A DNA stretch of 16,101 bases from positions 1 to 16,101 of the forward strand of contig JBMSQQ010000079.1 in assembly GCA_049423385.1 (NCBI GenBank), written 5' to 3'. The translations under genes and the position numbers were made by a program. The DNA comes from Silvanigrellaceae bacterium (GTDB lineage: Bacteria > Bdellovibrionota_B > Oligoflexia > Silvanigrellales > Silvanigrellaceae). Numbering within the stretch: position 1 is the stretch's first letter; every line of letters begins with the position of its first letter. Below are positions 1 to 16,101 of the stretch, piece by piece. The notes under the pieces are model-generated. The model had not been told where the DNA came from. It searched no databases and saw nothing but the letters and a program-made list of their open reading frames with translations.

Positions 1-104
1 CACGACTCAAAGCGTTTCATCTCCTTCATCAAGCGACGCCAAATCCGCTGGCTACGTGGACTGCGGACAATGAACTCTGATTCACCGACAACTTTTTTTG
101 CCAC
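1..104 (-). CDS. Possible 5' end of a gene running off the left edge (MAKKVVGESEFIVRSPRSQRIWRRLMKEMKRFES...)
   Basis: The only minus-strand frame open from 143 to the window edge. GTG at 104. No clear SD and no recognisable family. Confidence 0.25.
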   Translation of the reverse strand, partial: MAKKVVGESEFIVRSPRSQRIWRRLMKEMKRFES

Positions 105-414
105 ACAAATTGAGCAATTCAATGAAGTGCAGTGTAAAAACCATTAGCCTTCAGCTCCCACGACACCCTGAGAATCCAGAACTCTGGTCCATTGCTCAAA
201 TTTATGATTCCGCTTTGTGCTGAAGTGTGCAGACCGGAGAAGCTCAAGTCGCTGGGCCAACCTTCGCAAGTCGTACGTCGTGATTAAACTTCCCACCGTG
301 ACACATTCATGCGAACTTCATAACAGCAAGATGGAAAATCAAAGGACGCTCTCTACGCCAATGGTACTACTGCTTAAAATATGGGAGAGTAGCCATGTGC
401 AGCCTGTTTTTTTC

Positions 415-449
415 AAAATCCCATGGGAGCAAACTCCGGGATTTTTTTT
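415..449 (+). terminator. Intrinsic terminator-like hairpin with T-tract
   Basis: AAAATCCC (415-422) pairs with GGGATTTT (438-445). Inner GGAG/CTCC stem with CAAA loop and a 3-nt bulge. Eight T at 442-449. Confidence 0.4.
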
Positions 450-471
450 GAAGGCTATCGGGGGACCTCCT

Positions 472-960
472 TTGCAGAAGCGAAATGGTGTTTCTATACT
501 ATCTGCAAATCGTTGTCGCATAAGTATTCGGGTGAAAGTCAACGCTCGCACCAGTCAAGTGTTGGGTTTTTCCAATGAGCGTGGCGTTCTCGAAGTTGCC
601 TTGAATGCCCCACCCCGCGATGGTGAGGCGAATGCCGAGCTTATCGAAGTGATGAGCGAGTTGTTGCAGCTTCCAAAGCGACATCTGGCTATCGTCGGTG
701 GTCTTCAAAGTCGTGACAAACTGCTCGAGGTCGAGAGCGATTTCCAACGCATCGAGGAGATTCTGATGCGCAACAGTGCCGTTGCAACGCCCTTAAAAGA
801 AGAACCGCCTGTACGTTACACGAAGTCAAATTTGCCCAGCAAACCTTGTGCAACATGTGGTCTTCCATTCAACTGGCGCAAGAAGTGGGAGCGTTGCTGG
901 AATGAAGTTCGATACTGTTCAGACCGGTGTCGGAACGAAAAAGGGTCTGGTCATTCTTGA
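472..960 (+). CDS. DUF167 (YggU/UPF0235) domain fused in frame to a C-terminal DUF2256 CxxC...CxxxC domain
   Basis: IRVKVNA...[19 protein letters not shown]...GLQSRDKLL fits DUF167. [37 protein letters not shown] fits DUF2256. I place the start at the in-frame TTG 472 (GGGGA at 461-465), downstream of the hairpin. The ORF is open from 217, so the start is uncertain. Confidence 0.8.
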
Positions 961-986
961 ATGCTGTTTTTGCCTGGCCTCTTTGG

Positions 987-1013
987 TCAAGATTCACCCG
1001 GATTGACCGATAA
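987..1013 (+). promoter_or_regulatory. Sigma28 (FliA)-type promoter
   Basis: TCAA-N15-ACCGATAA versus the consensus TAAA-N15-GCCGATAA: exact spacing, one mismatch per box, 32 nt upstream of ATG 1046. Confidence 0.55.
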
Positions 1014-1045
1014 CTTCCAACGGTCCCCGTGTTTTTGGAGTTTCA

Positions 1046-2263
1046 ATGACTGTCAGAACAGCTTCCAATAAAAAGCCCACTTTTGCGATTGCATTGGCGG
1101 CTGGATGTGTTGCTTTGTTGTCATGTGTAAAAAAGAATCAGAGTCAGCCTCAACACGCCATCGGAACTCTGCCTTTGCGCTCTGAGCCCTTTCTTTGGCA
1201 GGAAATGACTGTTGCTGAGTTTACAAAAGAGGTTCTTCCCAACATGTGGGTGATGGCCTCGGAAAGTGACCTCATTCCTGATACCGACGCAAGAGTGAAG
1301 TTGCTTCAAGAAGCCATGAATCAGTTTCACGCGAAAGTCACGAAAAAATATCCAAGCTTGGCAAATGTTCCTCAACCGCGCGCGGCACTGTTTCGTGACT
1401 CTTCAATGAGTGCTTTTGTTGAAACTGTTCCATACTGCGCAGAGGCAACAATTCTGCTTCCTGGTTCGACAGACAAACCTGTTTACGCAGACGCCGTGCG
1501 AATCACCAAGGATGGATCCTTGGCAGATAGAGACTTGTGTCGGGCAGCTGATTCAACTCTCTTCAACTCTTATGTAGGTTTTCTAAATTCTCTCAGTCAC
1601 GGTTGTAGACTTGAAAAAACAGGAAGTGCTTTTAAGTTGTCGCCAGCCTGTCGTTTGAATGCCTACTTTAATGGTTACTCCAAAGCGACGCGATTTTCCT
1701 TCGACCGAATATCATCCGTGATCTATTTTTCCACGGGTCTGCTTGACACACTTCAAGACAACAAACTTGTAATTTACACTTTGATGCACGAATTGGCTCA
1801 CTATTACCGTGCCCATCCATTGCTTCCAGAGGCCGATTTTGCAATTTTCTATTCTGTGGGAGAAAAGAATACGCCAAGTTTTCCCGTTCCGGATGAAGAA
1901 CTTTCGCGACTTGCTCGTGAGAAAAACTTTGCCGAGTTGACCAGAATCATGATCGAAAGGCGATTGGGCTATTACTCCTTTGAACAGGAGGCCGACGAGT
2001 TTGCCTTGGAGTTTCTTGCGGAACTTGGAATATCCACTGCAGATGGCGGTGAATCGATGATGCGGATGCTTAAAAACACCAAGAAGGTGACACCACCCGA
2101 GTTGGATTATGAATCATGCGCTGCGTTGCGAGCTCAAAAATGGATGACATCAAACAACGTTTCAGCCTATGTCCCCATTGGAAATCTTGCCGATCCACAT
2201 CACTCCCTTTGTTACCGTGCTTACAACCTTGACCGTGAGCGTGACGCACACCGCTTTCCGTGA
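1046..2263 (+). CDS. M48-like zinc metallopeptidase, predicted lipoprotein
   Basis: Signal peptide with lipobox-like ALLSC. IYFSTGLL precedes LMHELAHY (HExxH), with EQEADEFA downstream (third-ligand ExxAD motif typical of M48) and a late His-containing DPHH. GGAG SD at 1037-1040. Confidence 0.8.
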   Translation: MTVRTASNKKPTFAIALAAGCVALLSCVKKNQSQPQHAIGTLPLRSEPFLWQEMTVAEFTKEVLPNMWVMASESDLIPDTDARVKLLQEAMNQFHAKVTKKYPSLANVPQPRAALFRDSSMSAFVETVPYCAEATILLPGSTDKPVYADAVRITKDGSLADRDLCRAADSTLFNSYVGFLNSLSHGCRLEKTGSAFKLSPACRLNAYFNGYSKATRFSFDRISSVIYFSTGLLDTLQDNKLVIYTLMHELAHYYRAHPLLPEADFAIFYSVGEKNTPSFPVPDEELSRLAREKNFAELTRIMIERRLGYYSFEQEADEFALEFLAELGISTADGGESMMRMLKNTKKVTPPELDYESCAALRAQKWMTSNNVSAYVPIGNLADPHHSLCYRAYNLDRERDAHRFP

Positions 2264-2326
2264 GGTGAATTTCCACTTTTGAGAGTGGTTAAAACCCCGG
2301 ATTCAGACTTCAGAACCGGCTTTGCG

Positions 2327-2363
2327 AAAAAGCGCGAGGGCATCGAAAACACCTCCCGCGCTT
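2327..2363 (-). terminator. Possible intrinsic terminator between convergent genes
   Basis: AAGCGCG (2330-2336) pairs with CGCGCTT (2357-2363), with an inner AGG/CCT. The A-run at 2327-2331 gives a U-tail on the minus strand. The loop is large and the stem imperfect. Confidence 0.35.
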
Positions 2364-2472
2364 GAATATGAAAAACCTGACCCAAATTTGCATCAAATCC
2401 GACATGTCGGCAGGCTAAAATTTAAATCCCTGAGAAATCGCATCATTGCATGAGGAGCTGCTCGATGAAAAT

Positions 2473-3012
2473 TCACCTGCAGACAGCAGCAAATTTAATT
2501 TTATCAGACCACCGTCCGAGCATGACACCCGAGCGTTGACGATATTCAAAATTCAACGTTCCCGAGGCGGTATCGAAGTCCACCAAATGCCAATCGACGT
2601 ACCCCTTGCGAGAACCGTCTGTGTACTTTGTCCGATGACTTTCCATATAAAAATAATCGTTGCTGAACTCAGTGACAGCATAGTCAATCGGAGAGCGGAA
2701 ATTGTGACGTCCATCTGGAGTATCGAACTCGAATTTCTCGACTTCACCCGACTCACGAACCATTTCAAATGAACTCAAAAACCAGGTAATCCGGTCGCCC
2801 CCGAACGCTCCACCATCCTTTTGCAGACTGCTCAGACAAAGATTCACATTCGAAATAGTCTCGCCTGAAACCTCATTTCGAACGGATTCAGCTTGGCACG
2901 CCTTAATCAATCTGCGTCCTTGATTTGGACCCTCATTGCAGGGTGCTGCATTTGCATAGGAAACCAAGCATGACGCAACAACGAAAGGCAACAAAACGCC
3001 TCTGAACACCAT
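2473..3012 (-). CDS. Secreted hypothetical protein (179 aa)
   Basis: GGAGG SD upstream of the ATG. Sec-type signal peptide ending in ANA. Beta-rich mature region with four Cys. No family recognised. Confidence 0.7.
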   Translation of the reverse strand: MVFRGVLLPFVVASCLVSYANAAPCNEGPNQGRRLIKACQAESVRNEVSGETISNVNLCLSSLQKDGGAFGGDRITWFLSSFEMVRESGEVEKFEFDTPDGRHNFRSPIDYAVTEFSNDYFYMESHRTKYTDGSRKGYVDWHLVDFDTASGTLNFEYRQRSGVMLGRWSDKIKFAAVCR

Positions 3013-3126
3013 GGAAACCTCCGGATTATTTCCGAACAGATTGCCACAAAGTTCGCCAATTGCAAACTTTTAACCATTGAATCTGCTCAGCAAAACATTG
3101 CACTCAAAAACTCAAGACTTGGAGAC

Positions 3127-5037
3127 TTACTTTGGATGGAAGCCAAGCTGCTCCCTGGACTGTCCAAGAATATCAAAAATATCTTTGTGGGGATTGAACA
3201 AAAGTCTCGGAACTTCAACATAAACTGCATTGACAAGATCGGAATGACTCAGCAATTCAAACATCGCAACTTCATGGTAAAAGACCGGTTCTCCATTGTG
3301 AATTTTTTTGGAGATTAGAAAAATCTCGCTGCGTGTGAGTTGGGAAAAATCCACAGCAATCGAATGCCGGCCGTCATTTGGCAAGAGCGAATCCATCATC
3401 CTTGATTCAACAAATGCCAGCGCTGCATTGAAGTGCGTTGCCTCGACCAAACCACTGCTTCCAAATAGCTTGTCCCTATCGCCAGGCGTTAAACGTCCAC
3501 CCTCAATACAGATCCTGACCTTTTCTCCCAATGGATTGGAAGCGATCACAGGAACACCACCGACATCAGATTGCTTCCGTGCAACAACCCCAAGCACAGA
3601 CAATGGCCTCAAGAGCTTTTTGTTCAGCTCTGTCAGCCGCTCAAGATTGCTCTTTGGCCATTCCATGTGGGGAAAGTGAAAGATGGCCCCCAAGAGCGAA
3701 AGTACATCTTCAAATTTCACCAATGTGGTTCCGGAAGATGAGCCCTCTGCAACGTTTAACCTGACCCGATTGCCCATCGAAACCAAAGTATTAAGCATTT
3801 TGATTGCATCCATCGAGATGTCTGAAAATCTTATGGTTTCTTGGGCATGCTCAGTATCTAAAACAATTGCCCTCTGGACGTCCGTCCGAATCGAATCAAG
3901 ACAAAGCTTTATCGAATAAAAGAGGCACTTCAGGGAATCAATTTTAAGACTCACTTCCTCACGGTTGCCAAAGATGTTGTCCACCGTCCGAACATGCAGG
4001 CAATTGCAAGACTGAATTCTGTCGGAAAGGAAATTGAAGTGATTGACGATCTCTCCGTGGCCTCCAGCCACAACGCTGTACTTGCCATCGGGCTCAAGCA
4101 AGGGTTCAGCGGCAGCAGTGAAGCGTATTGTCGAGTTTTCCATCCCCTGTTCCAGGATTGAATAAGACTGAGGTCCTGGGGACATCAGGGAGTCACGCAC
4201 GCCCTGTGCAATTGAATTTTGCATTTTTTGCTTGAATCCCTCTTCGGAGCCAACAGCAACAACAATTATCGTTTCAGAGCCAGGCAAAATCGCAGCCTGC
4301 TGCCAAATATTGAAGTCCAAAAAGCATTCCAGCCGGGATCCAACCGGAACCAGGGCCTTTGGCAAGGACACGCAACTTTGAAGAAAAAAGCGGAACGTGA
4401 AGTATGCCTCAAAAACCTTTTCCAAATCCCTGTCCGAAAAAACAAAATTTTTTGAAGGTGAACAGTTCGACCGGAATTTTGAAATTGACCTCTTTGCAAT
4501 ATCCAGAATCTCGGAAATTCCGCGACGAAAAACCTCGGACTTTTCTCCAAATTCGTCGGACTCCAAAAACTCTCGGACTCGACCGTATTCAGTAATGAGG
4601 CTCGAATCCAATTCAGCGAGTTCTTCAGAAATATTCACCGAACCACCAATATGAGTGGTGCCAGTGGCCGTGAGAATGCTTTCAAAAATCAATTGAATCC
4701 CTGGATAGTGGACTTCAATCGACTCGCAAAAAGCAGCTATCCTGTGCAGAAATCGGGTTGCAGCGCCAGCTGCAAGGATGACTGTTGCAATCCTTTGATT
4801 CAACATTGTTTCAGCGGAAAGACCAGAAAGACCGGATCGTTCCTGATAATCCTGGAGGAATATCGCCACCGCCTCTTCTGAAATCACCATCCCATTCTCA
4901 ACAGTGCAGGGCTCAACGAGGGAAAACGGCTCTTGATACTTTCCAGCCAAATAATCTTCAATGCGCTTTTCATGCGTCAAAACCTTCTGTTGGTCTAGAC
5001 CAGTATCTCTCAGAATATTGAGATTTACTTTCGACAT
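3127..5037 (-). CDS. DUF4301-like protein (nucleotide-diphospho-sugar transferase / UDP-sugar pyrophosphorylase-like fold)
   Basis: Ordered motifs VILAAGAATRF, LPKALV, GGHGEI, TVDNI, RPLSVLGVV...DVGGVP, ATHFNA and VYVEVPRLLFNPHKDIFDIL match my recollection of DUF4301 (ASGAASRMF, PKGL, GHGAL, NIDNV, RPIRVCGMV, THFNP, FVEVP..FNPVK..DLL). AAGGGAG SD. Overlaps the ATPase end by 13 nt. Confidence 0.8.
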   Translation of the reverse strand: MSKVNLNILRDTGLDQQKVLTHEKRIEDYLAGKYQEPFSLVEPCTVENGMVISEEAVAIFLQDYQERSGLSGLSAETMLNQRIATVILAAGAATRFLHRIAAFCESIEVHYPGIQLIFESILTATGTTHIGGSVNISEELAELDSSLITEYGRVREFLESDEFGEKSEVFRRGISEILDIAKRSISKFRSNCSPSKNFVFSDRDLEKVFEAYFTFRFFLQSCVSLPKALVPVGSRLECFLDFNIWQQAAILPGSETIIVVAVGSEEGFKQKMQNSIAQGVRDSLMSPGPQSYSILEQGMENSTIRFTAAAEPLLEPDGKYSVVAGGHGEIVNHFNFLSDRIQSCNCLHVRTVDNIFGNREEVSLKIDSLKCLFYSIKLCLDSIRTDVQRAIVLDTEHAQETIRFSDISMDAIKMLNTLVSMGNRVRLNVAEGSSSGTTLVKFEDVLSLLGAIFHFPHMEWPKSNLERLTELNKKLLRPLSVLGVVARKQSDVGGVPVIASNPLGEKVRICIEGGRLTPGDRDKLFGSSGLVEATHFNAALAFVESRMMDSLLPNDGRHSIAVDFSQLTRSEIFLISKKIHNGEPVFYHEVAMFELLSHSDLVNAVYVEVPRLLFNPHKDIFDILGQSREQLGFHPK

Positions 5038-7706
5038 GCCACTCTCCCTTTGAGGACGTTCGAGATCAATTTGTCCAACTCAACAACCAAGACAACAGTG
5101 AAGCTGAGAACCAGGAGAACAGCTATTCCATCAATTGGGATGGGAACAATTTGAAGAATTTCCCTTGTGAACTCAAAATGGGAAGCGAGCAGGTGAATAC
5201 CAAGTGCAATCAATACAGAAAGAACAAGAACTGGACTCCTGATTGGACTCAATTTGAAAGCCGAGACACTTTCTGATCGACAATTGCCAATGTGCACGTT
5301 TTCAAAAAAGACCATCAGCATCAGCACGGAACTCTGCGCAAGAGCCTGATCAGCGTATCTGTCAAGAATCCAGGTGTAAGTGTAGAAGGAAACACATCCC
5401 ATGGTCACGGAGGACAACAAAATCCTTCGAATCATGATCGCATTGAAGATACGCTCGGATGGTTTTCTTGGCGCTGCGCGTAGAATGTTTGGTTCACCAG
5501 GCTCAAATGCAAGCGCAATGTCCTGAATGCCATTCGTGACCAGATTCAGCCACAGCAAGTGGATTGGATAGAGCGGCAATGGAAGCTTTTCAACCAATGC
5601 AAGCGTAACCATGATGATCTCTGCACAGCCCGTGGATATCAGAAGCATGATTATCTTTCGGATATTGGCATAGGCAATTCGTCCTTCTTCTATGCCTGCA
5701 ACGATTGAAGAAAAGTTGTCATCTGTTATCACGAGCCCCGCAGCTGAACGCGCGGTGTCGGTTCCACTTGCACCCATCGCAACACCAATATTGGCAGTGT
5801 GAAGTGCAGGAGTGTCATTGACACCATCGCCAGTGACAGCAACAAAATGACCAAGCTGCTGGGCTTTCCTTACGATATTGAGCTTCTGGTGAGGTGTGAT
5901 TCGAGCAAAGACCTTGCATCTTCCCAGTGCATCAACGAAGTCTGCCTCGCTCATTGCATCAATTTCACGCCCATTCAGAACCTCATCAAAGTCTTTAATC
6001 AAGCCGAGCTCTTTTCCTATCGAACTTGCAGTGACTGGATGATCGCCAGTGAGCATGAAGACTGTGATTCCGGATTCCATGCAGATTTGAATTGATTCCC
6101 TGACACCATCCCGCAAGGGGTCCTTGATACCTACGAGTCCAACGAGGTGCATTCCGGAAAGACTTTCAGAAGTCAGTACATTTGGGCCATCGCCCTTGAG
6201 ATCGAGATCCGCCACGGCAACCGTCCTGAAGCCCGCCTCCGCAAGTTCCCGCACCGAATGAGTGAATCGCGGGAAGTCTGTCTCTTTGCGACACATACCA
6301 AAGACAACCTCTGGGGCACCTTTTGCCATCAAAACAGAACCAGAGTGCGCTCTCACCAAAACAGCTGCGTATTGGTTTTCAGAGTCAAACGGAATTTCGT
6401 CGACAATGGAATAGAGAACTTCGGCAGACTCTCTGCTCCATTTCAACTTGTGCGCCAAAGACAACAAGGCAACGTCTGTTGGGTCTCCACGCCACTTCCA
6501 TCGTCCTTCGTCAATGTACAACTGACCGTCATTGCAGAGCACCGCCGCTCGTGCAAGACGTGAAAGATGTGAATGATTGGAGTCGACAATCCGGTCTCCT
6601 TGAACAACTTCGCCTTCGGGTTCGAACCCAACCCCGGTGACCTCAAAGCGTTCACCGCTTGGGTCAACAATCCTCTGAACGGTCTGCTCATTTCGAGTGA
6701 GAGTTCCGGTCTTGTCGGTTGCAATCAGGGTGCAGCTGCCAAGCGCTTCAACAGCCGGCAACGATCGCACAATGACACCCCGACTGAGCATCTTGTTTGC
6801 TGCTATCGCCAAAGCCACTGTCAGCGCGACGGGAAGGCCCTCTGGAATCGCAGAAACAGCCAATGCAACGGCAAAAAGTGCCATTTCAGCAACATCGTAG
6901 CCCCGGCTGAATATTCCAAACCCAACAAGAACCAAAGAAATGATGCAAACCACGATGGCAATCGCCTTTGAAAATTTCTCCATTCTCAAAACGATCGGAG
7001 CTCTGCCCTTTTCTGCTTTTTGAATTTCGGCGGCTATGCTGCCAATCTCGCTCCTCACACCCGTCGCAACGACGATTCCCTTGCCCTTGCCCTTTGTAAC
7101 AGAGCTTCCGGCAAACAAAGTATTTCTGCAGTCACCCAGTATAACCCCGGACCCGGCCATCCAGTCGAAGCTCTTGGCAATTGGGACTGATTCACCTGTG
7201 AGCAGAGACTCATTGGTTTCAAGGTGGAACGAGTGAACAAGACGCGTATCTGCCGGAACAATTGTACCCGCCTCAACAAAAATGATGTCACCAGGAACCA
7301 ACTCCGTTGCCGGAAGAGTCTTGTTGAATCCATTCCGCAGGCAATTGACTCTTGTGTCAATCATGCTTTGCAATGCAAAAGCGGTCTTTTCAGCCTTGAA
7401 CTCGTGATATGCACCAATCGCAGCATTTATGATCAGAACCACAAGAATAAAGACGGCATCGACAATGTCACCGAGAAAAACTGAAATCAATGCAGCAATG
7501 AGTAGGAGGTAAATCAGTGAACTTCGAAACTGCCTCCCAAATATCGAAACCAGACTGGCTCTTGGCTTGCTCGGCAGAACATTTCTTCCCACTGAATCGA
7601 GTCTTCGCTTCGCTTCCTCGTCAGACAGTCCGAGCGATGATGTCTTCAATTGCTCGACGACTTCGTCAACCGTATGGCGAGCGAATTCAATTGCCGGAGT
7701 CGACAT
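5025..7706 (-). CDS. P-type II (SERCA/PMR1-like) cation-transporting ATPase
   Basis: LTGES, IPEGLP, DKTGTLT (phosphorylated Asp), KGAPE, MLTGD and TGDGVND motifs, with about 10 TM segments. ATG 7706 lies 7 nt after a GAGGA SD, so it is preferred over GTG 7712. Confidence 0.95.
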   Translation of the reverse strand: MSTPAIEFARHTVDEVVEQLKTSSLGLSDEEAKRRLDSVGRNVLPSKPRASLVSIFGRQFRSSLIYLLLIAALISVFLGDIVDAVFILVVLIINAAIGAYHEFKAEKTAFALQSMIDTRVNCLRNGFNKTLPATELVPGDIIFVEAGTIVPADTRLVHSFHLETNESLLTGESVPIAKSFDWMAGSGVILGDCRNTLFAGSSVTKGKGKGIVVATGVRSEIGSIAAEIQKAEKGRAPIVLRMEKFSKAIAIVVCIISLVLVGFGIFSRGYDVAEMALFAVALAVSAIPEGLPVALTVALAIAANKMLSRGVIVRSLPAVEALGSCTLIATDKTGTLTRNEQTVQRIVDPSGERFEVTGVGFEPEGEVVQGDRIVDSNHSHLSRLARAAVLCNDGQLYIDEGRWKWRGDPTDVALLSLAHKLKWSRESAEVLYSIVDEIPFDSENQYAAVLVRAHSGSVLMAKGAPEVVFGMCRKETDFPRFTHSVRELAEAGFRTVAVADLDLKGDGPNVLTSESLSGMHLVGLVGIKDPLRDGVRESIQICMESGITVFMLTGDHPVTASSIGKELGLIKDFDEVLNGREIDAMSEADFVDALGRCKVFARITPHQKLNIVRKAQQLGHFVAVTGDGVNDTPALHTANIGVAMGASGTDTARSAAGLVITDDNFSSIVAGIEEGRIAYANIRKIIMLLISTGCAEIIMVTLALVEKLPLPLYPIHLLWLNLVTNGIQDIALAFEPGEPNILRAAPRKPSERIFNAIMIRRILLSSVTMGCVSFYTYTWILDRYADQALAQSSVLMLMVFFENVHIGNCRSESVSAFKLSPIRSPVLVLSVLIALGIHLLASHFEFTREILQIVPIPIDGIAVLLVLSFTVVLVVELDKLISNVLKGRVACRK

Positions 7707-7889
7707 TGCCACATCCTCACCACATTGCCGCCAAGATGCGACAACTCCAGTCCACTCAACTTTCTGAACTCATGAAACTTCTGACACGAATGAGCTGCCC
7801 CATAAACCCTTGATTCTTACGTTAATGAAACCCCTGAAGGGTTTTCCCGAAGCGAATTTTCCACTTCAATCCGGCGATTCATACACTTC

Positions 7890-10274
7890 ATGAAAAGGTC
7901 ACATGCTGTGCGCAGTCAAAAAAGTATTTCGAAACTTTTGACCGTCACAAATGACAGGATCATCCTGTTCGTCAGACTGTTCTTTCCACTGCTTGTTGTC
8001 CTTGGATTGTTTGCTTATGCCCTGGTGCCACTCGTCTACTTCCTGACGTCCCAGTGGTTCGTGAAAGACTTGGACCTTCGAAGCGAACTCATTTCGAACA
8101 CACTTCAAGAGAGTGTTTCAAAAGCCTTGGCACTCACGGATCAGCAGGGAAGGAGTGAAGCACATGAAATCCTCATGCGGGTAACCCGCGATGAACGTCT
8201 GCTGGCATTGGGTGTTTGCAGTCCAGAGGGAACACTGTTCATCAAGACTGAACTTTTCCCTGAGAGTCTTGGATGCACGGACGTCATGGGACTCTTACCA
8301 TACAAGGGAATCATCAAGCACCTTCCGCATGGAGATGTACACCTTGCACGAGGCAAGATTGAGTCTAGTTTCGAAACCATTGGACCTCCGCCTCCCGAAT
8401 CCAAGCCACCACTTTCCGCCGGAGATTCTTTTGGCACATCCAAGGCGAAGTTCATTGGAAACCTCATCATCCTGCATGACATGAGTTTCATCCAGGCAAG
8501 AGGGAAGAACGCAGAGTTCTATATATTTGTGTTTTTTCTGAGCATCGCGTCAGTCACTGCCATCACAACCCTGATTGTCTCGCGCTGGAGTCAAAGGACC
8601 TGGATGACGACCATCAGAACAATCGTTGGTGGTGTCAGGGAATCAGGATTGAAATTCCGAACACAGCATCGAGATTTTTCGCCATTCCTGAGCGATTTGC
8701 ATAGCCTTGTCAGAAAATACGAGAGTTCTGAACGTTCGAATGAAGACCTTGATCGCTATTGGGATGCAACAAAAATCAGAGAGATTTTGAACCGTGAATT
8801 GTCGGGAGACGAAGTCATCGTCGTCTCAAACCGACAACCCTACGCACACAACTATTCAAATGGGAAAATTGAAGTCAGTTCTCCCGCGAGTGGCCTCGTC
8901 ACTGCGGTTGAACCCATCCTTCGCGCATGCTCGGGAGTTTGGATTGCACATGGGAACGGCTCGGCAGACAAGGACGTTGTCGATTCGTTTGGACGAATCA
9001 AAGTACCCCCTGACAGTGGCGAATATGAGATCCACCGCATTTGGCTCACGGAAGAAGAAGTAAACAGATACTATTCAGGATTTTCCAACGAGGGACTTTG
9101 GCCGCTGTGCCACAATGCGCATATCCGCCCCATTTTTCGTCGAGAAGACTGGCTACAATATTCGTCGGTCAACAGAAAATTCTGTGATGCTGTCGTTTCA
9201 GACTCGACAACTGCCGAACCAGTCGTACTGGTTCAAGACTTTCATTTGTCACTCTTGCCAGGCTTTATCAGGAAAGACCTGCCTGGTGCCACGGTCATCA
9301 CGTTCTGGCACATTCCGTGGCCGAATCCTGAAACATTTGGAATATGCCCATGGCATAAGGAAATTCTAAGTGGACTTCTGGGAAGCTCCATTTTGGGTTT
9401 CCATACGCAGTTTTGCGTCAACAATTTCCTGGACTGTGTGGACCGATTTCTTGAGTCTCGCATTGACCGGGAAACAAACACTGTCTCATATAAAGAACAC
9501 ATGTCTGAAATCAGGGCATATCCAATCTCCATTGAATGGCAGTCATCAAAAATGCTGCAAGCTCCTCCTGTCCTCGAATGTGAAGAGTACGTTCGTAAGA
9601 AGGAAAAAATCCCCAAAAACGTCAGGATCGCCATTGGAGTGGACAGGCTCGACTACACGAAAGGAATTATAGAACGATTTAGAGCCGTTGAAATGCTCTT
9701 GGAATCCAATCCAAGATACAGGGGAAACTTTACCCTCATACAAATTGCAGCTCCAACTCGCAGCGGCGTTACGGCATATCGAAATTTCGCTGATGAGGTT
9801 GTCGAAGTCTCCGAAGAAATCAACCGGGCATATGGGAGCGAGAGCTATCAACCAATTATTCTCAAAATCGAACATCACACTCAGGCCGAAATCTTCAAAT
9901 ACTATCGAGCTGCAGATGTTTGCCTGGTAACAAGCCTGTCTGATGGAATGAATCTCGTCGCAAAAGAATTCGTTTCTTCGCGCGATGATGAGGGAGGAGT
10001 GCTTATACTCAGCATGTTCACAGGCGCATCAAAGGAGCTTTTCGAGGCGCTCATTGTCAACCCGTATGATATCGAGCAAACTGCCAGTGCCTTGCTCCGA
10101 GCACTTGAAATGCCGCGACCCGAGCAGCGTGCAAGAATCCATGCCATGCGTTCGATACTGATGGACTACAACGTCTACAAGTGGGCTGGCCGCATGCTTC
10201 TTGATGCAGCAAGGATACGTCGCAGGAATCAGTTTTTTGAAGAGTTCAACGGGGAAGTTGAGAGACAACAATGA
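7890..10274 (+). CDS. otsA: GT20 trehalose-6-phosphate synthase-like enzyme with an N-terminal TM/extracytoplasmic/TM extension
   Basis: VVSNRQP, SGLVTA, YYSGFSNEGLWPLCH, QDFHL, FWHIPWP, GVDRLDYTKG and DGMNLVAKEF motifs. About 300 extra N-terminal residues contain two hydrophobic helices. The start is uncertain (in-frame GTG 7908 follows AAGG). Confidence 0.9.
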   Translation: MKRSHAVRSQKSISKLLTVTNDRIILFVRLFFPLLVVLGLFAYALVPLVYFLTSQWFVKDLDLRSELISNTLQESVSKALALTDQQGRSEAHEILMRVTRDERLLALGVCSPEGTLFIKTELFPESLGCTDVMGLLPYKGIIKHLPHGDVHLARGKIESSFETIGPPPPESKPPLSAGDSFGTSKAKFIGNLIILHDMSFIQARGKNAEFYIFVFFLSIASVTAITTLIVSRWSQRTWMTTIRTIVGGVRESGLKFRTQHRDFSPFLSDLHSLVRKYESSERSNEDLDRYWDATKIREILNRELSGDEVIVVSNRQPYAHNYSNGKIEVSSPASGLVTAVEPILRACSGVWIAHGNGSADKDVVDSFGRIKVPPDSGEYEIHRIWLTEEEVNRYYSGFSNEGLWPLCHNAHIRPIFRREDWLQYSSVNRKFCDAVVSDSTTAEPVVLVQDFHLSLLPGFIRKDLPGATVITFWHIPWPNPETFGICPWHKEILSGLLGSSILGFHTQFCVNNFLDCVDRFLESRIDRETNTVSYKEHMSEIRAYPISIEWQSSKMLQAPPVLECEEYVRKKEKIPKNVRIAIGVDRLDYTKGIIERFRAVEMLLESNPRYRGNFTLIQIAAPTRSGVTAYRNFADEVVEVSEEINRAYGSESYQPIILKIEHHTQAEIFKYYRAADVCLVTSLSDGMNLVAKEFVSSRDDEGGVLILSMFTGASKELFEALIVNPYDIEQTASALLRALEMPRPEQRARIHAMRSILMDYNVYKWAGRMLLDAARIRRRNQFFEEFNGEVERQQ

Positions 10275-11308
10275 ACATCTACAATAGTCACATTACAGCC
10301 TCGATTGCATTTTTGATTTTGTTTTCCATATTGCTGGCTGGAAAGCATTTGATTGTTCGCAAACTCAAAGATTCAGCAAGTCAGACCGAGTCCATTTTGG
10401 ACGACTCGATTCTCGTCATTGCAAAGAAATCAAATGCCCTGTTCCTTGCCGTTTTTTCCCTGTTTGTTGCCATCCAGTTTACCGATGTTCCAGGCGAAAT
10501 GGCGCTCTGGGTCAAGAAGATACTCATAGTCATGTCGGGGTTTCAGGCCTCTATTTGGCTGGTGAATGTTTCATCTATCGCCATCAACGACAAACTGAGC
10601 GAAAAGGTCAATGGCAGACTTGTAGAATCGGCCATGGCAACCGTGGCAATTCTCCTGGTCAGAATCCTGATCTTTGGTGTCATTGCACTGCTTGTTCTTG
10701 ACAACTTCGGAATCAACGTTGGAGCTCTGGTCACAGGTTTTGGAATTGGCGGCGTGGCAATTGCCCTCGCAGTGCAGAAAATACTGGGAGACCTGTTTGC
10801 ATCGCTCTCAATTGCACTCGACAAACCTTTTCGGGTTGGCGAGTTTATCATTGTCGATGACTTGTTGGGAACGATCGAACGGGTCGGACTCAAAACAACA
10901 CGAGTTCGGGCACTTTCAGGCGAACAAATCATCTTTCCAAACAGCTCATTGCTCGAGTCGAAGATACGAAACTTTAGCAAGATGCTGGACAGAAGAGTCA
11001 CCTTGAAAATATCTGTCGTATATGAAACCAGTGCAGAAAAATTGGAGCACATCTGTGACGTTGTCTGCAAAATCATCCAACAAACAAATGGTGTTCGACT
11101 TGAAAGGGGGCATTTTGCCGAACTTGGATCAAGCTCGCTCGATTTTGAATTTATTTATTGGGTGGATTCACCCGACTACAACATCTACATGCAAAAGAAG
11201 CAAGAAATAATCCTGAACATCAAACGATACTTTGATGACAACGCAATCGAATTCGCATTCCCGACACAGGTTGTTTACACGCAATCAATGAATACTGAAG
11301 GACGGTAA
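10271..11308 (+). CDS. mscS: MscS-family small-conductance mechanosensitive channel
   Basis: GIGGVAIALAVQKILGDLFAS, DKPFRVGEFI, GTIERVGLKTTRVR, IIFPNS and IEFAFPTQ motifs. ATGA overlap with the otsA stop. Confidence 0.95.
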   Translation: MNIYNSHITASIAFLILFSILLAGKHLIVRKLKDSASQTESILDDSILVIAKKSNALFLAVFSLFVAIQFTDVPGEMALWVKKILIVMSGFQASIWLVNVSSIAINDKLSEKVNGRLVESAMATVAILLVRILIFGVIALLVLDNFGINVGALVTGFGIGGVAIALAVQKILGDLFASLSIALDKPFRVGEFIIVDDLLGTIERVGLKTTRVRALSGEQIIFPNSSLLESKIRNFSKMLDRRVTLKISVVYETSAEKLEHICDVVCKIIQQTNGVRLERGHFAELGSSSLDFEFIYWVDSPDYNIYMQKKQEIILNIKRYFDDNAIEFAFPTQVVYTQSMNTEGR

Positions 11309-11377
11309 GACATAGAGCCCGGCACAATTTCTGACGGGCTTCCGTCGACATTCACAATATCCGGTCGACACCCGAAT

Positions 11378-12658
11378 TCAAAACTGACGTGTCATTGCGA
11401 ATACAAACATGAAGAGCAACGTTGGAGGCAATGCGGCTAAAAACAAGCCAAGTGGACTTATTCCACCGTCACCAAACGAATCCTTCAATATCCCATATCC
11501 AGCCGGGTTGGGAGCATTTGCAATGACCGTCAACCCCCCTCCTGCCACTGCGCCTCCAACAAGTGCGAGCTTTGCTGAATCCGATAGTCCAGGCACCAGT
11601 GAACCAAGATACGTCAACGCAGCGTTGTCGGTGAACGCGGTCAGCACAGTGGCACTCAAAAACAGAGCGACTGGCTGAAGAGCTGCAACAATTCCTTCCA
11701 GCCACCAGCCTTGAAGCCCACCAAGTGTCACAAGCCCACCCAGAAAAAATCCAACAAGTAGACCTTCTCTGATGTTGATTCTGTTCTGATGCTCGCGTGT
11801 CACCTCGGTCAACCCGAGAAAAAAGAGAAAAAGAGGAAGAAAAAACGAAATATGTTTATGATTGACTATCGTCAACAGCATAAACAATAGGTGCATTATC
11901 GTGAGCCAAACTGGTACGGGTGGTCGATCATCGTGCGATTTCTTCACATGAAGGACTGACAACTCTCGCCAGAAGAAAACCGCCGTCGCCACTGTTCCAA
12001 TTAAAACCGAAATCAACCCCTTGATTCCGATATTTCTCAGAACAAAAATCAAATCCCATTTCCATGGACCAACAACCATAAGTATTGGAGGTGCTGCAAA
12101 ATGAGTTAAGGTCCCGCCAATTGAAACGTTTACAAAGAGCAAACCAAGCGTTCCGTACCGTAAACGATTCGAAATTGATTGGGAGAAAAACGACTTTCGA
12201 AGCAGCAATGCTGTAACCGTCATCGCAGCCGGCTCGGTAATCAATGACCCCAAGAGCGGACCAACAATAAGTGTCGTCAAGTAAAATGCGATCGACTGGG
12301 GAATTGGGAGCAAAGATGAAGCACTGCGAATCAGTCGCTCTGCCAACTGAAGAATCGGCCGCGTGGAGGACAGACACATGATAACAAAAACAAACACTGC
12401 TTCAGAAAAGTTGACCTGATTCATGTAACTGACAGCTGCATCTGTCCCTGAGTGCATCGATACGACAAGCAAAAACAAAAATGCCCAGAGTCCAAATACA
12501 ATTTCAACCTCTCCCAGGAAATGAAAGAGGTTCTCCATGCCTGAACCTTCGCGATACTTTGCTGCCAATTTGTTGAATTGCTTTGAAACAAAAGTATGCA
12601 AAACCGCAAGGACGAAAAACAGTGTCGATACCTTCAAAAGTAGAGGATCTGTGATCAT
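11378..12658 (-). CDS. DUF1504-family putative Na+/H+ antiporter (IT superfamily-like)
   Basis: HFLGEVEIVFGLW, GSLITEPAAMT, NVSIGGTLTHFAAPP, LTAFTDNAALTYL and GGGLTVIANAPNPAG motifs, with many TM helices. Start moved to ATG 12658, which has a GGAG SD at 12664-12667. Confidence 0.85.
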   Translation of the reverse strand: MITDPLLLKVSTLFFVLAVLHTFVSKQFNKLAAKYREGSGMENLFHFLGEVEIVFGLWAFLFLLVVSMHSGTDAAVSYMNQVNFSEAVFVFVIMCLSSTRPILQLAERLIRSASSLLPIPQSIAFYLTTLIVGPLLGSLITEPAAMTVTALLLRKSFFSQSISNRLRYGTLGLLFVNVSIGGTLTHFAAPPILMVVGPWKWDLIFVLRNIGIKGLISVLIGTVATAVFFWRELSVLHVKKSHDDRPPVPVWLTIMHLLFMLLTIVNHKHISFFLPLFLFFLGLTEVTREHQNRINIREGLLVGFFLGGLVTLGGLQGWWLEGIVAALQPVALFLSATVLTAFTDNAALTYLGSLVPGLSDSAKLALVGGAVAGGGLTVIANAPNPAGYGILKDSFGDGGISPLGLFLAALPPTLLFMFVFAMTRQF

Positions 12659-12730
12659 TGCGACTCCAAAGTAAACAAGTCGGGCAGCATCAAAAGCCCA
12701 AAGGGTGCACAATTCCAAAAGCCTGACGAT

Positions 12731-14113
12731 TTACTGCTGTGGCTTTTCAGAAACAATTACTTTAGCGTTTTCATTCGCCATCCGAACTCGAAACCATCTC
12801 TCTATCTTCGACAAATCACCAGCTTTGAGCCTTGCATCTTTCTCCAACACAAGAAACTGAACAGCAGATTTTTCGGATGAAAGCTCAGATCCTGATGCTT
12901 TTCTTCTGAAGGAATCACCTCTCGCCACCACTGCACCGGAAATGTTCGGAAAATATGCCGAAACTTCATTTGCTACCTTTAAATTCGTTTCACCCAAAGA
13001 TGACAAGTCCGCAATGGTCCGTTCCAAGCTCTCAATTCTCTTGTCGCGTTCCCGCAGCTCTGAAAGTGACTTTTGGTACAAGTCATTCAGGAGATCTTCC
13101 TTCAACAAAGCCTTGTTTACTCTTTCATCGGCACCCTGAAAGATGACCAGGTCGGCATCTGCCAACCCCGATGATTTCATTTTTCTCTTGATCCCAGAGA
13201 TCTTGCCTTCATCCAGCACATCACCGATCAACGTAACCTCAATCCTTCTGGCTTGCGCATCGATTCCAATTTTTGCCGCACGAACATTGGCAGATTGCAC
13301 CTCATTATCGACAAACCTTGCAGCGCTGCTTCTAAAAACCTCTTGTTGTACAAGTCGATAGGCCAGAAAAATGCTCGGCAATGCTGTCACGGAGATAATC
13401 AGGATGAACCATCTTCTCAACTTTGCTTCTACCGCATTTCCAACATGTTGAATCCTTGGAAACTGCAAGAACCCCAAGACAACAATTGTCGCAACAGCAA
13501 TGAAAACAGAGTTTATAGAGAACAAATAGAGCGCACCCAGAAAGTACTCTATATTCGCATGAGCGATTCCGTAGCCCGCTGTGCACAGCGGAGGCATCAA
13601 GGCAGTCGCAATTGCCACTCCGGGAACAACATTGGAGTGCCCTTTCCTTATTGCTGCCACAGCGCCCGCAAGACCGCCAAAGAATGCTACTGCTACATCC
13701 CAGATTGTTGGTGAAGTGCGGGCCAACAATTCGGACTGGGCTTCCCGAAGCGGAGTGACCAAAAAGTATGCTGATGAAGTTAGCAAACTTATAACAGCAG
13801 CAATGATCAAATTGGTCACTGACTGCCGAACGAGTGCAAAATCGCGAATTGACACGCCGAATCCTACACCCATTATTGGGCCCATCAACGGCGAAATAAG
13901 CATCGCCCCAATGATCACAGCAGGCGAGTTCACATTCAAACCTATCGCAGCAATAAATATTGCTATTATCAGTGTGAGTGCGTTCATGCCCTTCAGCTCA
14001 ACACCTGCACGGAGATGTTCAGCTATCTGCTCAAAGTGGGCCACCTCGTCCTTCAGGGAAAATCGACTCAAAAAACCATGTCTCATTACTTTGAACAGGT
14101 CCACTGATTCCAT
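12731..14113 (-). CDS. DUF389 / TIGR00341-like membrane protein with soluble C-terminal region
   Basis: NSPAVIIGAMLISPLMGPI, ELLARTSPTIWD and PGVAIATALMPPLCTAGYGIA motifs. About 7 TMs followed by a coiled-coil-like segment (ELRERDKRIESLERTI). Purine-rich SD. Confidence 0.9.
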   Translation of the reverse strand: MESVDLFKVMRHGFLSRFSLKDEVAHFEQIAEHLRAGVELKGMNALTLIIAIFIAAIGLNVNSPAVIIGAMLISPLMGPIMGVGFGVSIRDFALVRQSVTNLIIAAVISLLTSSAYFLVTPLREAQSELLARTSPTIWDVAVAFFGGLAGAVAAIRKGHSNVVPGVAIATALMPPLCTAGYGIAHANIEYFLGALYLFSINSVFIAVATIVVLGFLQFPRIQHVGNAVEAKLRRWFILIISVTALPSIFLAYRLVQQEVFRSSAARFVDNEVQSANVRAAKIGIDAQARRIEVTLIGDVLDEGKISGIKRKMKSSGLADADLVIFQGADERVNKALLKEDLLNDLYQKSLSELRERDKRIESLERTIADLSSLGETNLKVANEVSAYFPNISGAVVARGDSFRRKASGSELSSEKSAVQFLVLEKDARLKAGDLSKIERWFRVRMANENAKVIVSEKPQQ

Positions 14114-14340
14114 TCACTCTTCCTTCCAATCCAATTTTCGGTCTCGCCTGAGCCAAACCGATTGCACTCGGATAGCAGGATACTGTGACGGTGAATTTCG
14201 CCAATTATGTATTCCTGGATCTTTGGATTTCCGCCAAAATCTCAACAACAAAGACCAACGATTGGCTTTTGCCTTTGAAAAAACTGCCAACCTGAACATT
14301 TGCAGATTGGCAGCGCGGCTCTGAGTTGGAGGGTCGAAGC

Positions 14341-14718
14341 TCAGGGCTGCTTCCTGTTTTTTCCAGACTTCTTGTCTTTCTTTGTCTTTGACTTTTCACT
14401 TTCTGAATTCTTCTCCGCGGGAGCGACCGCCTTGGCAGAATCAGCTGCAGGTGTGGCAGCGGGAGTCGCAGTTGGCACAACTCCCGATGTGGTGTTCGGA
14501 ACTGCAGCTGGTGTAGCGGTTGGAACAGCACCCGACGAGGTGGATGGTGTGGCCGTTGGCACAACACCCGAAATGGTGGATGGCGTTGCTGATGGAACAA
14601 CACCTGAAGTGGTTGCCGGAGCCGAAGCAGTACTACTTTGCGAAGACGGAACCGACGCACATGAACTCACAATCAAGACACTCGCAGTTGCAATCGCTGA
14701 AACTAAAAAATTGCGCAT
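14341..14718 (-). CDS. Small low-complexity Thr/Pro/Ala/Ser-rich lipoprotein with Lys-rich tail
   Basis: AAAGGA SD. Signal peptide with lipobox-like VSSC (Cys20). Repeat region followed by KSKTKKDKKSGKNRKQP. Confidence 0.75.
   Translation of the reverse strand: MRNFLVSAIATASVLIVSSCASVPSSQSSTASAPATTSGVVPSATPSTISGVVPTATPSTSSGAVPTATPAAVPNTTSGVVPTATPAATPAADSAKAVAPAEKNSESEKSKTKKDKKSGKNRKQP
14458..14613 (-). repeat. Four imperfect 36-bp coding repeats (TxSG[V/A]VP[S/T]ATP[S/A])
   Basis: TTSGVVPSATPS / TISGVVPTATPS / TSSGAVPTATPA / AVPN spacer / TTSGVVPTATPA. Confidence 0.85.
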
Positions 14719-14745
14719 GAATAGACATCCTTTCTCAAATCATGA

Positions 14746-14763
14746 CTTACTGTCTTCAGTAAG
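14746..14763. promoter_or_regulatory. Perfect 7-bp inverted repeat upstream of the repeat lipoprotein gene
   Basis: CTTACTG-TCTT-CAGTAAG. Confidence 0.35.
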
Positions 14764-14808
14764 AGTAACTTCAGAAAAATTTCGAAAAAACATCATTTCG
14801 ACATTGCC

Positions 14809-14837
14809 TATATATGGATATTCAATATCCTTATATA
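14809..14837. promoter_or_regulatory. 29-bp near-perfect palindrome, candidate operator
   Basis: TATATATGGATATT-C-AATATCCTTATATA: 13 of 14 positions pair around C14823. Confidence 0.5.
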
Positions 14838-14841
14838 AGAC

Positions 14842-15393
14842 TCACCTGAGCTTCAGACACCAGCCGACTCCATTTCCCAAGTAATTGTCAAAATGTGAGA
14901 GCTGATAGTGAGATTTTAAGCCACCAAGGTTTAGAGAAAGGGTGGCAGTTCCCTTATTAAAATCGAGAATCAGATATGACTTTCGTCGATCGACTGTCTT
15001 GTTGTTCCATGTCAAGGCAGAAGTCTTGGCCACACATCGTTCGAAAGCCCTGTTAAGACGCAGCTTCCAGACCAGTTCAGTGTCTGTGCGCTTCACCAGC
15101 TTTATATTGTCGGCAAACCAGCTGGAATTCAGTTCACCACATGAAACCAATCCTTCGTTGGAATCTTTTATCAATCCGTCGGACGCCGAGACCAGAAATG
15201 GGCAGTCATCAACTCTATCTGCATCGAAAACGAACCGAATATTTGGCACTATTGGCGGAACTTGTACAGATCCACCCGTCATGTTTGACCCGCTCAAAGA
15301 TGGCGCTGCGCCCTTTGTGGACTGCGGCAAGGCTTTTACAACGGGCAATGCAAAGAGAAAAAATACGGACAGATTCAGTTTTCGTATAATCAT
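14842..15393 (-). CDS. Secreted hypothetical protein (about 183 aa)
   Basis: From ATG 15393: MIIRKLNLSVFFLFALPVVKA is a typical signal peptide, and the mature part has four Cys. The ORF is open to 15492 and there is no clear SD, so the start is uncertain. Confidence 0.6.
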   Translation of the reverse strand: MIIRKLNLSVFFLFALPVVKALPQSTKGAAPSLSGSNMTGGSVQVPPIVPNIRFVFDADRVDDCPFLVSASDGLIKDSNEGLVSCGELNSSWFADNIKLVKRTDTELVWKLRLNRAFERCVAKTSALTWNNKTVDRRKSYLILDFNKGTATLSLNLGGLKSHYQLSHFDNYLGNGVGWCLKLR

Positions 15394-15495
15394 GGCGATT
15401 AAATTCCGAATGATTTTTTCGGATTTTAAAACAAGGCAAATTCCCCCGGATGCGATATTCAGATAATGAATATCATCCATTGAACAAAACAAAGG

Positions 15496-16101
15496 CTAGA
15501 TGCTGAAAGATTTCAGCAAATGAGAGACCTGTCCAAGCATTTGTTTATCGCGAGATGCGATAAAGATTGACGATTGCCAGAATCCTTCTTTCGGTCCCAG
15601 AAGGTGGATACGCTTTAAATTTGAAGCGTCGATTGCATATGCCCTGGGCAACAGGGCGAACCCCAAACCTTCGGATGCAATCCTGATGATGGATGAAATT
15701 GAGCTGGATACGAACACCGTGCTTTTTCGGATGAGGTTTCTCGAACAGAATCTATCTGTCTCCTCTCTCAGCTTCAAATGATGTGACGGTAAAATAAGAT
15801 CAAGCGGCAATTCGACGAGATAGCCAATCCAGTCAGCAAATGTAATTGGCGCGATGTTTCTCGAAAATCGGGTCACCAAACCAGGTTGGCATATGAGACT
15901 TACCGGCAAATAGTGCTGTTCAACGAAGTAGCTGCCAACACAAGATAAAATGGAACTCGTGAATGCAAAGTCAATTTCCCCGTCGGACAGCTGCCGACTG
16001 AGATCCTCATTTCGAACATTTATCAAACAGATATTGACACGTTTGTTTCTAAAATATTCACCGACAAATTGACACATAAGGTCCGATACGAACGGACATT
16101 C
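15496..16101 (-). CDS. LysR-family transcriptional regulator, C-terminal effector-binding domain (N-terminus beyond the right edge)
   Basis: Frame open to the edge (ECPFVSDLMCQF...). EDLSRQLSDGEIDFAF, LILPS...LREETDRF and SSISSIIRIASEGLGFALLP are typical of the LysR substrate-binding domain. The HTH is not in the window. Confidence 0.8.
   Translation of the reverse strand, partial: ECPFVSDLMCQFVGEYFRNKRVNICLINVRNEDLSRQLSDGEIDFAFTSSILSCVGSYFVEQHYLPVSLICQPGLVTRFSRNIAPITFADWIGYLVELPLDLILPSHHLKLREETDRFCSRNLIRKSTVFVSSSISSIIRIASEGLGFALLPRAYAIDASNLKRIHLLGPKEGFWQSSIFIASRDKQMLGQVSHLLKSFSI

Follow-up and report, generated by a model that had tools for sequence, protein, structure and literature searches.

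Accounts of how bacteria control trehalose synthesis usually concern transcription and treat OtsA, the trehalose-6-phosphate (T6P) synthase, as a soluble enzyme. Another sugar enzyme, the membrane-bound phosphomannomutase AlgC, carries a periplasmic dCache domain N-terminal to the enzyme (Qian, Fei and Galperin, bioRxiv 10.1101/589796). According to the accessible text of that preprint, this form was long overlooked, the soluble catalytic part alone being studied, and direct environmental control of its activity was proposed (bioRxiv 10.1101/589796). Genes for T6P synthesis and for a mechanosensitive channel stand together in the msc-gt-tpsp operon of Thermoproteus tenax, for which the accessible text gives the authors' joint stress-response model (PMC3634074). 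Here we analysed a 16,101-nucleotide stretch of contig JBMSQQ010000079.1 from a Silvanigrellaceae bacterium (the window), in which an otsA gene with two predicted transmembrane (TM) segments overlaps an mscS gene; we call its product TM-OtsA. We lean, by a little, towards the reading that TM-OtsA is an intact OtsA from a large membrane-anchored subfamily, that its receptor-like N-terminal module senses the envelope and tunes T6P synthesis, and that the window gene is a duplicate coupled to mscS.

TM-OtsA is encoded by a 794-amino-acid (aa) open reading frame (ORF) on the forward strand (7890..10274). The start is ambiguous between an ATG at 7890 and a GTG at 7908; a database protein identical over the N-terminal query, P0003, has 788 aa. 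Hydropathy analysis (Kyte-Doolittle, 19-residue windows, threshold 1.6) found hydrophobic stretches at aa 19-55 and 207-232, and C110 and C129 are the only cysteines in the outer domain of ~156 aa. A search with aa 1-305 retrieved 79 proteins of 490-794 aa, and the same TM1-loop-TM2 pattern was present by hydropathy in 76 of them, the exceptions being P0062, P0080 and P0081. The initial annotation had described a receptor-like topology with TM1 at ~7960-8045, TM2 at ~8515-8580 and a domain of ~155 aa with two Cys between them, followed by a GT20 domain starting near 8812 and an otsA stop overlapping the mscS ATG. Hydropathy and sequence matched the membrane segments and the two-Cys domain, the Pfam GT20 domain begins at nucleotide (nt) 8811, and the overlap is the ATGA at 10271-10274. 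Its ORF, TM, GT20 and overlap coordinates were right to within a few bases, and the topology is real and conserved.

To describe conservation of the module, we aligned 44 sequences taken from DNA loci of at least five phyla. Twelve columns were invariant: P33, W56, D60, R64, C110, P124, C129, D197, R204, S234, W238 and W291. Both cysteines were kept in all 44 sequences, each of which has exactly two Cys in the outer domain. Because the pair is present, with no other outer Cys, in 44/44 sequences, a disulfide between Cys110 and Cys129 is likely. The Pro/Ser-rich loop of the outer domain is longer in the window protein than in most relatives and is gap-rich in the alignment.

An AlphaFold2 model of the module was built on the 44-sequence alignment, and a separate full-length model was also made. 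The module model had a predicted local distance difference test score (pLDDT) of 85 overall, mostly above 90 in the outer domain, and contained helices at residues 6-81 and 85-101, five strands, and helices at 199-251, 264-283 and 293-304. Foldseek against the PDB gave as best matches the outer sensor domains of WalK/YycG, DctB, CitA, LuxQ, KinD and Tlp3 (best E 1.4e-5, most 1e-3 to 4e-2; target-normalised TM-score up to 0.66). VIA-align, a search of 48,161 chains independent of Foldseek, gave a Z of 11.2 for WalK (131/147 residues, 3.1 A), 10.9 for DctB and LuxQ and 9.7 for CitA, and its first 38 matches (Z 11.2-8.0) were by title periplasmic sensor or ligand-binding domains, bar one domain of unknown function. 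Once GT20 clusters had been removed, the ESM Atlas clusters lying nearest, taken as leads only, were sCache_3_2, sCache_4+HAMP, GAPES3 and BarA-type kinases. Since the structure searches agree and the profile searches, given below, were empty, the outer domain is classed by its fold as one PDC/Cache-like domain that its sequence does not place in a known family; a PDC/Cache-like sensor fold is supported by the model. A two-copy complex prediction of the N-terminal module (score 0.30, mark 0.42) was not used as evidence either way.

In the linker that follows, the TM2 helix runs to residue 251 and ends in a conserved Gly, and a connector or loop of 12-14 residues leads to helix 264-283 and then helix 293-304. 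Conserved positions are S234, W238, P265, D269 and W291. Scanning the whole genome with PF00672 turned up six HAMP domains, none of them this linker, and hhalign of the linker (44 sequences) against an alignment of these HAMP domains (6 sequences) paired 36 columns in the HAMP register with E 0.0031. The modelled linker resembles HAMP in layout and is a candidate HAMP at most. A sensor-like fold in the outer domain and a HAMP domain at residues ~230-300 had both been proposed for checking in the initial annotation. The first was borne out, Foldseek having recovered periplasmic PAS/PDC/Cache domains in agreement with VIA-align and ESM Atlas; for the second, the helix-connector-helix layout was found, a Pfam HAMP match was not, and the hhalign probability was only 10%.

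We investigated which proteins carry the module. PF00982 was present in 79 of the 79 proteins retrieved with aa 1-305. When 1.84 billion representatives were searched exhaustively with the profile, 1349 clusters (50% identity) matched at E<=1e-3, 882 of them at E<=1e-10. In the indexed database 795 longer proteins matched, and PF00982 was annotated in 119 of the 120 listed, the remaining one being without annotation. Among 46 representatives long enough to show the downstream part, 23 had GT20, 23 had no Pfam family and none had another family; 19 of the 23 family-less representatives align into the GT20 region and then continue in apparently frameshifted tails. Among the matches listed, the weaker ones of the 1349 clusters lying outside, the module appears in front of GT20 only. 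Carriers include Oligoflexales, Silvanigrellaceae, Nitrospira, Gemmatimonadales, Limnocylindria, Geobacter and Trichlorobacter, as well as many Burkholderiales (Massilia, Janthinobacterium, Uliginosibacterium, Casimicrobiaceae). The module was found in 14 of 131 genomes of the window phylum, and any GT20 in 41 of the 131.

Long TM-bearing OtsA homologs had been mentioned in the initial annotation, together with a lack of any characterisation of the extension. The remark was correct, the homologs forming a large family across phyla, and no description of a TM or sensor extension on OtsA was found in the full-text literature, subscription journals lying outside coverage. The accessible text of the Geobacter metallireducens genome paper says of GSU2337 that it contains "a domain 37% identical" to the mycobacterial enzyme, and nothing more (PMC2700814). 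The membrane-anchored OtsA subfamily is large, unnamed and unannotated in databases. Many phylum genomes (e.g. G102:C937, G041:C3, G104:C193) have other GT20 genes, with 450-527 Pfam bits and frames of ~730-790 aa. These higher-scoring genes were unmatched by the N-terminal module search and may be OtsA-OtsB fusions; in seven phylum genomes they occur alongside the TM form.

The pairing of the module with GT20 bears on an alternative explanation, in which the module is an anchor or scaffold that tethers, and perhaps oligomerises, OtsA at the membrane (for membrane protection, or near an exporter) and does not gate it, the PDC-like domain being structural or a docking site for a periplasmic partner. 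The module was never recombined with other outputs, as would be unusual in a generic sensor but is in keeping with a structural appendage that co-evolved. The module also has no ligand-binding family signature, and the outer domain of WalK, the best structural match, works via partner proteins (9a5d, by its title a WalK-YycH model). However, a plain tether needs no 156-aa folded domain with 12 invariant positions and a Cys pair across phyla, a conserved linker of ~75 aa with invariant S234, W238 and W291 would be superfluous for it, and soluble OtsA enzymes (455-497 aa) function unanchored. We consider a mere anchor unlikely and prefer a module that senses and tunes.

We examined the catalytic part of TM-OtsA. 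Glyco_transf_20 (PF00982) matched with 391.9 bits against a gathering cut-off of 32.5, covering model positions 2-470 of 473. The closest solved relative is Mycobacterium thermoresistibile OtsA (5jij, E 6.9e-81); fungal Tps1 was also matched, and E. coli OtsA (1gz5/1uqt) gave E about 1e-63. Residues S313/N314/R315, D450, H474, R586, K591, R624, D685-N688, K692 and E693 were invariant in 48 full-length family members, the window protein included, and align identically in 5jij and 6jbi. By the E. coli OtsA structures, the SNR, DxH, HIPFP, RLDYxKG, PxR and DGMNLVAKE motifs serve in catalysis and substrate binding. To judge from these conserved residues, the window gene encodes a catalytically intact OtsA-type T6P synthase.

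To define the usual setting of the module, we examined the loci of its relatives. In 10 of 13 fetched same-phylum loci, otsB (PF02358) lies directly downstream; of the remaining three, L026 is cut by the contig end, and in L029 and L034 none was seen, where the ORF filter may have kept an opposite-strand frame. A GH15/TREH_N-type gene adjoins otsA in 12 of the 13, and MarR is frequent. Among 80 loci of other genomes, otsB is downstream in 68 and GH15 present in 45. In most genomes the otsA with the module forms part of an otsA-otsB(-GH15 trehalase-like) operon. The 4-nt overlap of the window recurs between otsA and otsB in 5 of the 10 phylum loci where otsB is present. In the window, the otsA stop TGA (10272-10274) overlaps the ATG (10271-10273) of the next ORF (345 aa), so that mscS occupies the overlapped slot normally held by otsB. 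One further candidate for otsA near mscS, L054, the only one of the 80 loci with an MscS homolog, was rejected, its channel lying 2.6 kb off behind two unrelated genes in a possible assembly duplicate. L054 and L057 are nearly identical TM-otsA genes on two contigs of one beta-proteobacterial metagenome-assembled genome; one has otsB, and the other is followed by BrkB-like and unknown genes with MscS 2.6 kb downstream, the pair being a recent or assembly duplicate.

We investigated the origin of the window copy. The genome contains a second TM-OtsA of 777 aa on contig C159, divergent from a GH15 gene. After this paralog, C159 ends inside an OtsB N-terminus (FDYDGTL motif), and the single PF02358 match in the genome lies at the start of contig C83, which continues an OtsB. 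C159 and C83 are probably neighbours; an exact sequence overlap between them was not found. Because these contigs carry the paralog, GH15 and OtsB parts, the genome also contains a canonical otsA-otsB operon outside the window. A maximum-likelihood tree of 35 sequences placed the window copy as sister to the C159 paralog, with a Shimodaira-Hasegawa-like approximate likelihood-ratio support (SH-aLRT) of 100 and 60% identity, and with branch lengths after the duplication of 0.62 for the window copy and 0.40 for the paralog. Their N-terminal modules are 46% identical. The window copy was shared by the close relatives P0003 and P0004 only (P0004 being 85% identical), and a metagenome scan for its close relatives returned one distant locus only, at 31% identity. 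By its position in the tree, the window gene is a lineage-specific duplicate of the canonical gene.

The duplication raises an alternative in which the window paralog has changed its chemistry and yields a different GT20-type product, for instance glucosylglycerol phosphate or some other sugar phosphate; the lack of otsB would then be accounted for. Its branch after duplication is the longer one, its scores lie below the NCBIfam OtsA cut-offs, and the glucosylglycerol-phosphate synthase (GgpS) model TIGR02398 gave a partial match of 279 bits. Yet the OtsA models reach 414-479 bits against that 279, every family-invariant GT20 position is kept, and the gene is 60% identical to a canonical paralog sitting with otsB and GH15. 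We regard changed chemistry as highly unlikely, and keep to a T6P synthase.

Comparison with a congener, G110, was performed to trace the surroundings of the duplicate. Homologs of the window ATPase, DUF4301-like, mscS, Na/H antiporter, DUF389 and LysR genes lie there within 18 kb at 28-69% identity (L128, G110:C46:38000-56000). In G110 the ATPase and mscS genes are direct divergent neighbours, and otsA-otsB-GH15 stands on the other side of the ATPase operon. Orthologs of the window MscS were found in 8 of 32 other genomes of the family. The whole window (1-16101) is a conserved ion and osmotic island that is syntenic in G110. On the simplest history, otsA was duplicated and one copy came to lie between mscS and the promoter region of the ATPase, in an island already combining trehalose and ion-homeostasis genes.

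The reality of the otsA-mscS junction was examined in Logan contigs. The region 7700-11400 is spanned whole by contigs from two studies (12,953 and 6,487 bases, with 5 and 15 differences), of which the near-identical 12,953-base contig may be the source of the window DNA itself, and a third study contributes a 151-base piece that crosses the overlap (10212-10362). Because contigs of separate studies span it, the junction is real DNA and not an assembly artefact. Differences within otsA were mostly synonymous (10/13 in X2, 6/6 in X9, 4/4 in X1), which we count as a sign of constraint; a low-depth set, X13, had two variants, one in otsA and one in mscS, both nonsynonymous.

The MscS product has all three Pfam domains above their cut-offs (PF21088 37.2, PF00924 65.6, PF21082 44.8 bits). 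It is hydrophobic at aa 3-32 and 47-75, N-terminal to a segment at 116-177 that bears the pore-helix region, and its 345 aa compare with the 286 positions of NCBIfam profile PRK10334, which models E. coli MscS. No sigma-70 consensus promoter was found in 7713..7889, and a promoter and terminator scan of 7500-11600 gave fewer sites than shuffles and was uninformative. Co-expression of otsA and mscS is plausible and has an archaeal precedent (PMC3634074). Tight coupling to MscS is local and derived.

Such a restricted arrangement could be accidental: the duplicate would have landed in the ATPase-mscS gap, the ATGA would have arisen by chance or drift, and the link would be the shared island only. 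MscS is adjacent in 0/13 and 0/80 related loci, the mscS of G110 stands alone and divergent from the ATPase gene, and the window copy is limited to itself and the close relatives P0003 and P0004. However, contigs of two to three independent studies show the arrangement with few changes, purifying selection acts on the coding sequence, mscS takes precisely the overlapped position that otsB has in other loci, trehalose genes and mscS were already in one island in the genus, and an archaeal trehalose-synthesis/msc operon provides a precedent in the accessible account (PMC3634074). An accident appears somewhat unlikely, and we favour a coupling of the duplicate to mscS.

A closer connection, in which the synthase and MscS form a physical complex with synthesis and release linked mechanically or allosterically, is extremely unlikely. 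The ATGA overlap and the shared membrane location are all that speaks for it, whereas the other members of the family lack the partnership, their canonical neighbour in that slot being the soluble OtsB. The initial annotation had suggested this pairing with the release channel, and it went unsupported: the window copy is a duplicate inserted beside a pre-existing mscS, and the conserved module cannot have evolved for a partnership that other family members lack.

In the mechanism that we favour, of a sensing module on an intact synthase, the outer domain would sense a signal in the envelope or periplasm, for example a solute, the ionic strength, or the redox state through the Cys pair. Relayed by TM2 and the linker to the cytoplasmic GT-B domain, the signal would tune T6P synthesis post-translationally, and the genome's single OtsB would turn T6P into trehalose. 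Through coupled otsA-mscS translation, cells loading compatible solute would also make an emergency release valve. We infer the gating of the synthase by the module.

Several results weigh against this mechanism. Neither experiment nor computation here links the module to a change in enzyme activity. No Pfam family matched aa 1-307 at E<=10, relatives giving chance-level matches only, and a PDB sequence-profile search with the module returned nothing significant (best E 0.23). The linker was modelled weakly, with pLDDT 48-59 at aa 250-290 in the full-length model, and gave no HAMP (PF00672) match at E<=10. The NCBIfam OtsA equivalog cut-offs were missed (TIGR02400 414.2 vs 564.85; PRK14501 478.8 vs 634), so T6P specificity is one that we infer from homology and from the operon partners in relatives. 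There is no otsB in the window. No MscS homolog was found in the 13 phylum stretches or adjacent to otsA in the 80 loci of other genomes, and the MscS link could be an insertion accident because it is confined to the window lineage.

A bolder version, which we hold tentatively as possible but doubtful, would make TM-OtsA a so far unrecognised transmembrane receptor-enzyme class in which a periplasmic PDC/Cache-like sensor directly gates a GT-B enzyme, with the duplicate wired to MscS as a two-gene fill-and-release osmostat. The sensor might then be redox-sensitive or ionic-strength-sensitive via the invariant Cys pair and the membrane-proximal D60/R64/D197/R204 cluster.

The features of the window are collected in Table 1. 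For the DUF4301-like protein, Pfam covers the C-terminal part only; an Atlas structure search gave TM 0.68/0.84 to a DUF4301 cluster, and no solved relative of the 636-aa protein was found by sequence. At the left end of the window, an ORF at 217-960 (+), of 247 aa, contains DUF167 (YggU-like) at aa 100-173 and a DUF2256 zinc-ribbon-like region at aa 203-240. Its ~95 N-terminal residues are unassigned, and it may be a fusion or an over-long ORF call.

Table 1. Coordinates of TM-OtsA, its parts and the neighbouring genes in the window
Feature	Position	Strand	Basis and remarks
DUF4301-like protein, 636 aa, 13-nt overlap with ATPase gene	3127..5037	-	Pfam; homolog after the G110 ATPase
P-type (type II) cation ATPase, divergent from otsA	5025..7712	-	Pfam/NCBIfam; 47% identical to the mscS-adjoining G110 ATPase
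Intergenic region common to otsA and the divergent P-type ATPase gene; presumed otsA-mscS promoter region	7713..7889		ORF map, sequence
TM-OtsA, putative membrane-anchored trehalose-6-phosphate synthase	7890..10274	+	ORF, Pfam, NCBIfam; alternative start GTG 7908
TM1, about aa 24-52	7959..8045	+	Hydropathy; modelled helix 6-81 runs on as a long stalk
Extracytoplasmic PDC/Cache-like (PAS-like) domain, aa 53-208, predicted	8046..8513	+	AlphaFold2 model, Foldseek, VIA-align, invariant columns
Putative disulfide pair, Cys110 codon (8217-8219) to Cys129 codon (8274-8276)	8217..8276	+	Conservation
Pro/Ser-rich variable loop joining strands 4 and 5 (about aa 160-186)	8367..8447	+	pLDDT 44-71 in both models
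TM2, about aa 209-231	8514..8582	+	Hydropathy; model helix 199-251
Cytoplasmic linker, aa 232-307 (76 aa)	8583..8810	+	Conserved columns, models
GT20 catalytic domain, aa 308-772	8811..10205	+	Pfam PF00982, E 5.3e-117
ATGA overlap, otsA stop / mscS start	10271..10274	+	Sequence
MscS-family mechanosensitive channel, 345 aa	10271..11308	+	PF21088, PF00924, PF21082
Na_H_antiport_3 transporter	11378..12718	-	Pfam; 69% identical homolog in G110 island
DUF389 membrane protein	12731..14113	-	Pfam; 47% identical homolog in G110 island

Compared with known systems, TM-OtsA shares its GT-B catalytic domain and motifs with the classical soluble OtsA and Tps1, and an otsB partner is common to canonical members of the TM family. 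The solved soluble OtsA chains have 455-497 aa and begin at GT20, whereas TM-OtsA adds ~300 N-terminal residues. For the pairing of solute synthesis with a channel, the ectoine cluster of Nitrosopumilus maritimus reportedly includes an mscS gene, in work by Widderich and colleagues from 2016; that cluster concerns another solute and other enzymes, with no membrane-anchored synthase. In T. tenax, the accessible text describes an archaeal fused soluble TPS-TPP activated by a separate GT4 protein, with no sensor module on the synthase, and a channel that is a 197-aa fragment-like MSC heading the operon (PMC3634074). The otsA-mscS coupling of the window would be a bacterial example of making a solute together with its release valve.

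With WalK, CitA, DctB, LuxQ and the BarA-type sCache_4+HAMP proteins, TM-OtsA shares the TM1-sensor-TM2-helical linker topology and the outer fold. Sensors of the PDC/sCache kind have a kinase, methyl-accepting chemotaxis protein or cyclase as output, whereas TM-OtsA has a glycosyltransferase, and it lacks sequence-level membership and a demonstrable HAMP. If the module gates the enzyme, a GT-B glycosyltransferase would be a new output type for PDC/Cache sensors, and compatible-solute synthesis would be under direct outside-in control. Many soil and freshwater bacteria would then control this synthesis post-translationally from outside the membrane. Several carriers are cultured, and the gating question is directly testable in them.

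A close counterpart is dCache-AlgC, in which TM1, a periplasmic Cache-type domain and TM2 likewise precede a cytoplasmic sugar enzyme (bioRxiv 10.1101/589796). AlgC is a phosphomannomutase with a profile-recognised double Cache and, in the accessible text of the preprint, no such linker described, whereas TM-OtsA joins GT20 to a single PDC-like domain recognised by structure only. TM-OtsA is an overlooked, widespread variant of the transmembrane receptor-enzyme theme.

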